Source of the DNA: a virus
Taxonomy: Duplodnaviria > Caudoviricetes
Reading direction: 5' to 3' (one strand)
DNA length: 64,000 nt
Virus record (IMG/VR): IMGVR_UViG_3300037847_002819
Coordinates: 1-64,000 of that record
Shown here: one piece after another, positions 36,660-38,170 of the stretch
Numbering within the stretch: position 1 is the stretch's first letter
Layout: every line of letters starts with the position of its first letter
Position numbers and translations under genes: made by a program
Notes under the pieces: generated by a model
What the model saw: only the letters and a program-made list of their open reading frames with translations
Told to the model about the DNA's origin: nothing
The model's database searches: none

Positions 36660-36734
36660 GCATATGGTAGCAACTTTGGTAATGAGGAACGAATGGCTAC
36701 CTTATATGAAGTCCGAGGTCGAATAGTAGTGGCT
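36660..36734 (+). promoter_or_regulatory. Archaeal-type promoter (box + TATA + TCGAATAGTAGTGGCT)
   Basis: CCTTATATGAAG at ~36700; TCGAATAGTAGTGGCT at 36719-36734 recurs at 37484-37499. Confidence 0.7.
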
Positions 36735-36780
36735 TCGGGGATTGAAGCATTAATCTAACACATTTAGGAGTTGATTAAAA

Positions 36781-37269
36781 ATGGAAATAGAAAAATGGAA
36801 TGATAAAGTTGCCATGATTATTGCATGGTTAAAGGAAAATGACGCAGGTGCTATGGGACAGGTTATTCAAGTTAATATTGAAGCCGGTAATGAAGCACAA
36901 ACAGATGAAGATAGGAATAGATTTTGGGAGGCAGTTAGAGCCTTGTGTAAAACACTTCCAAATAGCCCTATTAAGAAAGGTCGTGGTTCAACACTACCTA
37001 ATGAAGTCCAAGCGGTTTTAGATTCAATATCTGATGAAGTCGCTCAAGCCGCTAGTGATTTTTTTGCTATTGGTGACATGAATATGCTTCTTTTGAAGCA
37101 TGGAAAGAGTGGCGGTGGTTTATTCACTGCTGACGAGTATTCTGCATATATGTCACAAACAGTAGTTAATTCTCTCAAGAGGAGATACAAAGACAAAATT
37201 TGGGATGGTAGTCGTCAAGGACTATTAACCCAAGCATTCCCCGTTGAGGAGGTTGACGAGGAAGAATGA
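36781..37269 (+). CDS. Paralog family protein, copy 1
   Basis: Shares DEDRNRFWEAVRALCKTLPNSPIKKGRGSTL with copy 2; HGKSGG and WDGS motifs. Confidence 0.9.
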   Translation: MEIEKWNDKVAMIIAWLKENDAGAMGQVIQVNIEAGNEAQTDEDRNRFWEAVRALCKTLPNSPIKKGRGSTLPNEVQAVLDSISDEVAQAASDFFAIGDMNMLLLKHGKSGGGLFTADEYSAYMSQTVVNSLKRRYKDKIWDGSRQGLLTQAFPVEEVDEEE

Positions 37270-37305
37270 TTGATGCTTTAATCCCCAAGCCCCAGATTCA
37301 CCAAA

Positions 37306-37395
37306 TAACCCGCATAGGACTGATAATTCCGATTCTTATATTTATTATCTGTATGATTAATCAGCCTATGCGGGTTATGCCTTATTTTTTTATTT
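37306..37395 (+). terminator. Long hairpin plus T-tract
   Basis: ATAACCCGCATAGG...CCTATGCGGGTTAT followed by TTTTTTT. Confidence 0.65.
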
Positions 37396-37439
37396 TAGGG
37401 TAGTAAAACCAAAGTGTATTCATTACATGAATATTTATT

Positions 37440-37499
37440 ACCATATGGTTGTATCTTTGAGCAACCCTACATATAGTAGCACATCGAATAGTAGTGGCT
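37440..37499 (+). promoter_or_regulatory. Archaeal-type promoter, copy 2
   Basis: ACCATATGGT..CTTTG..CCCTACATATAG..TCGAATAGTAGTGGCT. Confidence 0.7.
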
Positions 37500-37548
37500 C
37501 AAAGGGATTGAGTCGGTATTGATGGAGTCAATACAGGAGATGAAAAGA

Positions 37549-38079
37549 ATGGAACAAGAAAAGTGGATAACAAAGTCTAACGAAATTAGAGCATGGCTTG
37601 AGCATAATGATGCAGGGGCTATGGGAGCAGTAATAACAGTAAATCTAGATGCTGGCGATTCAGCCGCATCCGATGAAGACAGAAATCGTTTTTGGGAAGC
37701 AGTTCGGGCATTATGCAAGACCCTCCCAAACTCGCCAATAAAGAAAGGTCGTGGCTCAACGCTAGACCCAGCAATTCAAGCCGTTGTGGATTCTGTGAGC
37801 AATCGCATTCAAAATGCTTTTGTCACAATTTCTGACGCTGAATTGCTACTTGAAGTAATGCTACCACATGGTAAAACAGGTGGCGCATACGCTAACATTG
37901 AAGCATTGGCTTCTGATATGGCAACAAAGGCTGTAAGAGTCCTAAAGGCGGCATTGAAAGATGGTCGCTGGGATGGAACAATGAGCGATAGTGGACTAAC
38001 AGGCATGACTCCGCCTATGAAGTCTGATTCCTCTAACGAGGAAGCAACGGAAGAATCCCAAGAGGAGGAAACCGTCTGA
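37549..38079 (+). CDS. Paralog family protein, copy 2
   Basis: ATG 37549 (MEQEKW) after AGGAGA aligns with MEIEKW of copy 1. Confidence 0.9.
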   Translation: MEQEKWITKSNEIRAWLEHNDAGAMGAVITVNLDAGDSAASDEDRNRFWEAVRALCKTLPNSPIKKGRGSTLDPAIQAVVDSVSNRIQNAFVTISDAELLLEVMLPHGKTGGAYANIEALASDMATKAVRVLKAALKDGRWDGTMSDSGLTGMTPPMKSDSSNEEATEESQEEETV

Positions 38080-38170
38080 TACCGATTCAATCCCTTTAAG
38101 CCCCATACGATTCCTACGGGCATCCGGTAACACCTGTTAAAATTACAATTGAATCTGAACATAGGTCAAT

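Follow-up and report, generated by a model that had tools for sequence, protein, structure and literature searches.

Introduction

Pairing between the 5′ and 3′ untranslated regions (UTRs) of one messenger RNA (mRNA) is already known from a few bacterial genes, namely hbs, icaR and hilD. A 14-base-pair (bp) pairing of the two UTRs shields the Bacillus subtilis hbs mRNA from RNase Y, as compensatory mutations showed (Braun, Durand and Condon, 2017; PMC5737220); in icaR of S. aureus and hilD of Salmonella, interplay of the two UTRs of one mRNA alters decay or translation (PMC5737220). In haloarchaea, the 5′ and 3′ UTRs must act together to control translation, as stated in the abstract (Brenneis and Soppa, 2009; PMC2636863). 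Here we describe a longer pairing in the first 64,000 nucleotides (nt) of the IMG/VR virus record IMGVR_UViG_3300037847_002819, a stretch that we call the window; the whole record holds 95,889 bases and is rated complete. Two neighbouring paralogous genes of the window, copy 1 and copy 2, each give an RNA in which a helix joins nucleotide 1 of the primary transcript to bases from the stop codon onward.

The likeness to hbs lies in a short (<600 nt), highly expressed monocistronic mRNA whose 5′ UTR is paired with its 3′ UTR; the hbs pairing limits RNase access, and it differs in that it is 14 bp long, AU-rich and internal (after two 5′ hairpins and before the terminator), and in that the enzymes concerned are the bacterial RNases Y and J1 (PMC5737220). 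The haloarchaeal control was an interplay seen with reporter genes, and the abstract describes no direct covarying end-to-end pairing (PMC2636863). A literature search found no report of end-to-end mRNA pairing for archaea or their viruses, and the paper on magroviruses, the group that the present virus resembles, mentions no promoter, hairpin, palindrome or inverted repeat (PMC5434244). What is new here is a helix of about 24 bp, longer than that of hbs, which is terminal at both ends of the RNA (nucleotide 1 and the stop codon), has a GC-rich, conserved outer half, belongs to an archaeal virus, covaries across about 90 genes and is matched by fitting RNA ends. It is known here from sequence and RNA contigs.

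Other described systems share part of this geometry. Long helices of 5′ and 3′ flanks enclose a whole functional RNA in ribosomal RNA (rRNA) precursors, where they are RNase III stems in bacteria and bulge-helix-bulge stems in archaea. Those stems lie outside the mature RNA and are cut off, whereas the helix of the window is the RNA end itself, has no bulge-helix-bulge and encloses a coding sequence. The transfer RNA (tRNA)-like ends of plant viruses and of MALAT1/mascRNA also place a helix and then a CCA-type end on an RNA that is not a tRNA, but their structure includes an elbow resembling a T arm, and tRNA enzymes have been shown to act on them; the two RNAs described here lack such an elbow, their helix involves the mRNA 5′ end, and the CCA is not conserved among relatives. 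The icaR 3′ UTR is said to cover the ribosome-binding site and to repress translation, and the window differs in that the ribosome-binding site lies outside the helix.

Two messages closed by an end helix

An initial annotation, made from the letters alone, had described two 24-pair stems, each containing two G-U pairs and followed immediately by CCA, and our reading of the sequence agreed with it. The copy 1 helix has 24 pairs, G-U at two of them, and a single bulged C at 36736; in copy 2, 24 of 25 positions are paired, with two G-U pairs and one C.A mismatch (coordinates in Table 1). Its placement of the 5′ arms about 25 nt after the TATA centre was also correct (26 nt in copy 1, 24 nt in copy 2), as was the start of the 3′ arm within the stop codon of both genes. 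An inverted-repeat search recovered the copy 2 arms (24 nt, 92% complementary) and missed copy 1, because the G-U pairs and the bulge count as mismatches. When the whole RNAs (36731-37294 and 37496-38105) were folded, the end helix was kept in the minimum-free-energy and centroid structures, the CCA was left single-stranded in both, and the fold z scores against shuffles were −5.3 and −4.3, respectively.

An ungapped scan for long-range helices over the complete genome ranked copy 2 as its top match (score 44); copy 1 was not seen because of its bulge. The other matches were at the shuffled level (14 and 8 on the two strands versus 3-9 in five shuffles), indicating that such a helix is a property of this gene family, not of the virus at large. 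Both copies have the same 16-mer, without a mismatch, at positions −12 to +4 relative to each start. It extends upstream past the arms, and the duplicated unit is therefore larger than the arms.

Covariation of the two arms

Relatives were collected from marine contigs by scans with the protein and with a 25-member family alignment, which gave 8 viral loci and 80 of 90 metagenome loci. A profile search of the open frames in those loci returned 159 hits, which yielded 102 distinct genes whose two flanks were both available, with 77 different arm pairs. Most relatives have a helix of 15-30 pairs at the same place, formed by very different letters; the 5′ arm begins with G after an AT-rich stretch, and the 3′ arm begins at or just after the stop codon. 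Absent or weak complementarity in homologs, which the initial annotation had named as evidence that would speak against the helix, was found in a third paralog and an AT-rich subfamily.

We aligned 97 distinct family genes with MAFFT, set 14 outer pairs by hand and counted all 97 rows. In these pairs, 78.1% of the cells were paired, compared with 62.9 ± 0.8% when partners were shuffled, and the covariation score was 0.425 versus 0.201; none of 500 shuffles reached either value. Sliding the partners by 1-3 columns left only 34-57% of the cells paired. Changes on both sides were observed in 13 of the 14 pairs, as in column 40/745, which holds AU 39 times, GC 35 times and UA 12 times. The window's own rows are one column out of register in the MAFFT alignment, which lowers the pairing count.

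The outer half of the helix (about 12 pairs) is GC-rich and conserved, and the inner pairs are AU-rich and variable. Conservation of the outer half extends to sequence as well as pairing (GCUUCGGGGG with CCCCCGUGGC types), and in different clades position 4-5 is repeatedly irregular (U.U, C.A or a bulged C), column 37/748 being unpaired in 67 of 96 cells. No conserved sequence was found in the inner half. There, the median duplex energy over 69 distinct arm pairs was −15.1 kcal/mol for cognate and −5.6 kcal/mol for non-cognate arms, and 53 of the 69 cognates fell under the 5th percentile of the non-cognates. A gene's own 3′ arm was the best or tied-best partner in 31/69 cases and was within the best five in 46/69. 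Both tests indicate that the pairing, which the initial annotation had called covarying from two copies, is under selection.

We then counted helix mismatches in an alignment that allowed Watson-Crick pairs only, and found 152 G.U versus 46 A.C; over 69 distinct arm pairs, the counts were 117 and 28. Transitions should yield G.U and A.C equally unless the plus-strand RNA matters, and the excess of G.U therefore indicates that the helix acts in RNA and not in DNA. The relatives agree with the earlier claim that the G-U pairs work on the plus-strand RNA only, and the sense duplex was more stable than the antisense duplex in 73 of 95 genes. The helix is under selection in the plus-strand RNA, and we are highly confident that it is real as an RNA structure.

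Promoter and RNA ends

The upstream regions of 93 distinct relatives were aligned on the first arm base. The resulting profile is C-rich from −32 to −29, has a T/A-rich box from −28 to −21 (centre about −26) and is AT-rich from −8 to −1, with T at −1 in 86/93 and G at +1 in 83/93. The profile matches that of archaeal promoters, which have a TATA box near −26 and in which transcription starts at a purine after a pyrimidine. The TATA-type profile places the predicted transcription start on the first arm base.

For RNA evidence, contigs from four metatranscriptome runs (X1-X4; one sample, one study), which cover about a third of the stretch, were aligned to 36300-38500. Copy 1 contigs begin exactly at 36731 in X1, X2 and X3, and copy 2 contigs exactly at 37496 in X2 and X4, as had been predicted; in X4, the copy 1 contig starts at 36737. 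In several contigs the 5′ end is preceded by two letters without a match, which we read as a hint that reverse transcriptase ran off a true end. A single X3 contig (36731-37293) contains both copy 1 arms. Copy 1 contigs end at 37293 (X2), 37293 (X3) and 37294 (X4), and one further contig, with a T insertion, stops a few bases short of these. On these contigs, the copy 1 RNA 3′ end lies three bases after the last pair. Of the two 3′ ends that the initial annotation had predicted, 37294 agrees with these contigs and 38105 does not, since the copy 2 contigs run past it. No RNA contig of the four runs covered 36300-36730, 37295-37495 or 38154-38500, which indicates that the cover is transcript and not carried-over DNA. 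Circularisation, which had also been proposed, received no support: no back-splice joint was found among the contigs of the four runs, which can miss rare forms, and their loose ends were 1-3 letters.

A palindrome, ACCATATGGT, also occurs in this region. It has five exact occurrences (37440, 38293, 39056, 39528 and 40040) and near copies at 36614 and 36659, so that the series spans 36614-40049 of the window; allowing at most one mismatch, 12 matches were found versus 1.66 expected. It sits 56-117 nt upstream of both transcript starts, and within CAAAG..CTTTG it is found after family genes in many relatives. The palindrome is probably a factor-binding site of this promoter class.

The 3′ side in relatives

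We examined the four letters after the helix in 75 distinct relatives. TCCC occurred 18 times, CCCA 15, CACA 8, CCCC 7, CCA plus any letter 7 and CACT 6, with others including CTTA and ATCA; CCA was present within these four letters in only 22/75. Most relatives in the window's own clade have the helix followed by C and CCA, or by CCA, and close relatives of copy 1 have CTTA (L009, L010, L032) or ATCA (L030). CCA is found in a minority of relatives and is therefore a clade habit, not a family rule.

Relatives other than the GC-richer ones described below have a GC hairpin, or a hairpin and T run, 10-140 nt after the helix. Genes of the copy 2 type have a conserved trailer of about 75 nt between the 3′ arm and a covarying terminator hairpin, in which double changes were observed in 12 of 14 pairs (16 sequences). 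RNA contigs cover the first part of this trailer in the window (38106-38184). RNAalifold on the copy-2 trailers returned only the terminator hairpin and no fold for the trailer itself, and no Rfam family was found on 38106-38184.

Across 85 genes in which the outer helix is aligned, the distance between the first base of the stop codon and the last outer pair is 21-32 nt (mode 26), and 37-59 nt separate the first arm base from the ATG downstream. These distances leave out 12 of the 97 rows, which have weak or differently placed helices (the third paralog, L086, the second gene of L084, L087, L090, both genes of L089 and of L093, L092, the second gene of L074, and L088).

As a separate observation, in GC-richer relatives (e.g. 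L012:2437-3025, L038, L039 and L042) a run of 3-5 T begins four letters after the 3′ arm. The long-range helix and U run in these genes therefore resemble a terminator whose hairpin is closed by the mRNA 5′ end.

Discussion

We favour the reading that the helix is an end-to-end clamp, which would shield both mRNA ends and keep the stop codon beside the ribosome-binding site, and we give it a probability of roughly 0.6. Each gene would have an archaeal-type promoter of its own and yield a short monocistronic mRNA that closes into a loop ('panhandle'). The clamp would hide the 5′-triphosphate end and leave a 3′ tail (3-4 nt, C-rich) too short for exonucleases; the message could then resist both 5′-3′ decay (RNase J/aCPSF2-type) and 3′-5′ decay (exosome/RNase R-type) and accumulate. 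The copy 1 3′ end would mark where trimming or cleavage from the downstream terminator back towards the helix stops. When a ribosome stands at a stop codon, it covers roughly a dozen bases downstream. The stop codon is held at a near-fixed distance from the outer end of the helix, and a terminating ribosome should therefore open only the AU-rich inner half. The GC-rich outer 12 bp or so would stay closed and would retain the ribosome, once released, some 25-30 nt from the Shine-Dalgarno sequence of the same gene, which is GGAGTTGAT in copy 1 and which we take to match the anti-Shine-Dalgarno sequence. Such closeness of the release site to the ribosome-binding site would favour re-initiation. 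Geometry and the bacterial precedents suggest that the pairing probably protects the message or helps its translation. Of the closed-loop mRNA with a tRNA-like end that the initial annotation had put forward, the loop is supported, as a selected plus-strand helix from the first base, and the tRNA-like end, aminoacylation and circularisation are not.

Several points weigh against this reading. Stabilisation and ribosome recycling, which are argued from geometry and from bacterial precedents, are much less certain than the helix. For the column-wise covariation test, the structure and register were chosen on the same alignment, and the aligned sequences are related to one another. In the whole-window control, only 33/98 cognates scored above the 99th percentile of non-cognates, and whole-window duplex energies placed 49/95 cognates under the 1st percentile of shuffles. 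These controls also favour the cognate arms, with an overlap that arises because relatives share the GC-rich outer helix, and whole-window RNAduplex energies extend into spurious pairs; we therefore put weight on the column-wise and inner-half tests. The third paralog (best duplex −15.1 kcal/mol) and the AT-rich subfamily (L086, L087, L090, L092 and the minus-strand genes of L089 and L093) have a weak helix or none. The RNA ends rest on contigs, not reads, from one sample, and contigs locate ends only poorly. Among known strains, position 37295 is G, A or T, a variation that could interrupt assembly at that base; such a break would predict a contig downstream, and its absence from every run counts against this explanation. 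Copy 2 contigs, of low depth and from a diverged strain, reach 38127 (X2) and 38153 (X1), 22 and 48 nt past the CCA, and a 3′ end beside the helix is therefore not general.

Two alternatives accept the helix as RNA and give it another role. It may be a regulatory operator or switch, which would bind a protein (the gene's own product, or a viral or host factor) or open and close to time translation or decay. The sequence conservation of the outer half, the recurrent irregular position 4-5, the confinement of the helix to this gene family within the genome and the joint action of haloarchaeal 5′ and 3′ UTRs on translation (abstract of PMC2636863) are consistent with such a role; we consider it rather improbable, given that Pfam, PHROG and structure searches found no RNA-binding fold or family for the protein, that the ribosome-binding site lies outside the helix and that there is no sign of two alternative folds. 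The helix could also mimic a tRNA acceptor end, so that host tRNA 3′-end enzymes would maintain the mRNA end by RNase Z-type cutting or CCA-limited trimming, CCA-adding repair and perhaps charging. In this case, the helix plus (C)CCA of the window's clade would be an acceptor-end mimic made from two mRNA ends without a T arm, other clades carrying other tails (UCCC plus a U run, or CAC), and the viral message would gain tRNA-like end maintenance through the host CCA-adding enzyme. The CCA directly after the helix in both copies and in most relatives of the clade fits this idea, as do the three copy 1 contigs that end at 37293/37294, where there is no T run and beyond which the terminator hairpin has no RNA cover. 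A tRNA gene of the virus encodes no CCA, and the host should therefore add CCA enzymatically. Even so, we regard both the mimic and its clade-restricted form as unlikely: CCA is present in the minority of relatives given above and is replaced in close relatives of copy 1, the helix is a continuous 24 bp where an acceptor/T stack would have 12 bp, T arm and elbow are both missing, and the copy 2 contigs run on beyond the CCA. ARAGORN reported nothing at the arms, the Rfam tRNA model matched only the true tRNA at 41900-42061, and no Rfam family was found on the arms at E ≤ 1.

The remaining alternatives concern joining, cutting or the DNA itself. As a processing or ligation substrate, the helix would bring the ends together for cutting from a longer precursor or for joining into a circular mRNA. 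The rRNA precursor helices of archaea and bacteria offer a precedent, two ligase-like proteins are among the viral gene products (one of them with matches to RNA-ligase and capping-enzyme families as well), and the copy 1 3′ end lies away from the terminator. This explanation is nevertheless very unlikely, as the pairing has just a 1-nt bulge or a single mismatch in place of a bulge-helix-bulge motif (two 3-nt bulges and a 4-bp helix), it stops at the RNA ends, the promoter is at the right distance for a primary 5′ end, and the contigs of the four runs, which can miss rare forms, showed no joints. A feature of the DNA, such as the terminal inverted repeats of a mobile cassette, a cruciform or a recombination site, would account for a gene bracketed by inverted repeats and for the differing number and orientation of family genes among related genomes. 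We find it extremely improbable: a DNA duplex or cruciform does not favour G.U over A.C, RNA ends coincide with the arms, the homology of the copies extends past the arms into the promoter, and there is no transposase-like gene or family match. Target-site duplications, which the initial annotation had listed as a sign of a mobile cassette, are present at the flanks of neither copy (..TAGT / ..CCAG/CCAT). The mobile cassette and cruciform were therefore rejected.

The family provides a natural data set on the protection and recycling of uncapped, non-polyadenylated mRNAs in archaea. The element is compact, with two arms of about 25 nt, and is a candidate mRNA stabiliser for archaeal expression systems. 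Given the abundance of magroviruses in surface sea water, messages with this helix are likely to be among the common viral RNAs there.

Features of the locus

Table 1. Features of the two genes and their flanks (positions in the window)
Feature	Position	Strand	Remarks
TATA-like box, copy 1	36702-36709	+	box about 36702-36707, centre about 26 nt before the first arm base; sequence and profile of relatives
5′ arm, copy 1	36731-36755	+	first base is the RNA 5′ end; sequence, fold, RNA contigs
Shine-Dalgarno-like GGAGTTGAT	36767-36775	+	5 nt before the ATG of copy 1
Copy 1 coding sequence, 162 amino acids	36781-37269	+	predicted all-alpha protein with acidic tail
3′ arm, copy 1	37268-37291	+	begins at the G of the TGA stop
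CCA overhang, copy 1	37292-37294	+	copy 1 RNA contigs finish here
Terminator-like site after copy 1	37308-37391	+	hairpin 37308-37319/37365-37376, then T run 37385-37391; without RNA contigs
C-rich stretch and TATA-like box, copy 2	37465-37476	+	box about 37469-37475, centre about 24 nt before the first arm base
5′ arm, copy 2	37496-37520	+	first base is the RNA 5′ end; sequence, inverted-repeat search, fold, RNA contigs
Copy 2 coding sequence, 176 amino acids	37549-38079	+	counted from the ATG aligned with the family start
3′ arm, copy 2	38078-38102	+	begins at the G of the TGA stop
CCA after copy 2 helix	38103-38105	+	RNA contigs here do not end at it
Copy-2-type 3′ region	38106-38250	+	conserved trailer 38106-38184, terminator hairpin 38185-38230, T run 38243-38250

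Protein family and paralogs

The copy 1 and copy 2 proteins are 53% identical (86/161). They matched no Pfam or PHROG family, and none of 33 database relatives has a functional name. The structure was predicted with a predicted local distance difference test (pLDDT) score of 83. Foldseek against the PDB found nothing at E ≤ 0.001, a BFVD structure search returned two unnamed relatives only, and a wide structure search (VIA) gave generic three-helix bundles over residues 1-66 only, with a best Z of 8.5, which is within the common range. The third paralog (41102-41578, +) has 35% identity (E 3e-20). Within the structural-gene block there is a weak fourth paralog (11241-11711, −; 26% over residues 62-144, E 1.2e-4), which has no end helix. 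The number and orientation of family genes vary among related genomes, L009 and L033 having one copy per strand.

Genome and gene neighbourhood

The G+C content of the genome is near 34%, and the genes form two blocks that run in opposite directions away from 36-40 kb. A thermosome-type chaperonin subunit, a class II ribonucleotide reductase (RNR), a UvrD-type helicase and an archaeal-type ATP-dependent DNA ligase with its N-terminal domain are encoded. At 41900-42061 (+) there is a tRNA gene whose intron is about 90 nt long; it scored 53.6 bits with the Rfam tRNA model (model positions 1-71 over 162 nt), and the CCA missing from its sequence would follow the acceptor stem. ARAGORN overlooked this gene and reported no tRNA in the window. 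The genome size is presumably roughly that of magroviruses. A thermosome subunit is carried by some magrovirus groups (PMC5434244). The gene content (thermosome, ligase, RNR, helicase and intron-bearing tRNA) matches a magrovirus-like virus of Marine Group II archaea, an assignment based on predicted genes. A phage nucleotide search with 36400-38400 gave no match.

Some further features of the window were recorded. The two ligase-like genes lie at 8709-11234 (−) and 59895-61424 (+); the 841-amino-acid ligase-like protein matches the DNA-ligase adenylation domain and, more weakly, RNA-ligase and capping-enzyme families. A match to the manA RNA family at 39212-39476 (−) was under the gathering score (28.3 versus 55.2 bits; E 0.0002). 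Finally, the region 33738-36102 (−) encodes a row of small, otherwise dissimilar proteins, all of which start with M-[ST]-W-x-[DE]-[IV]-[IL]-K.

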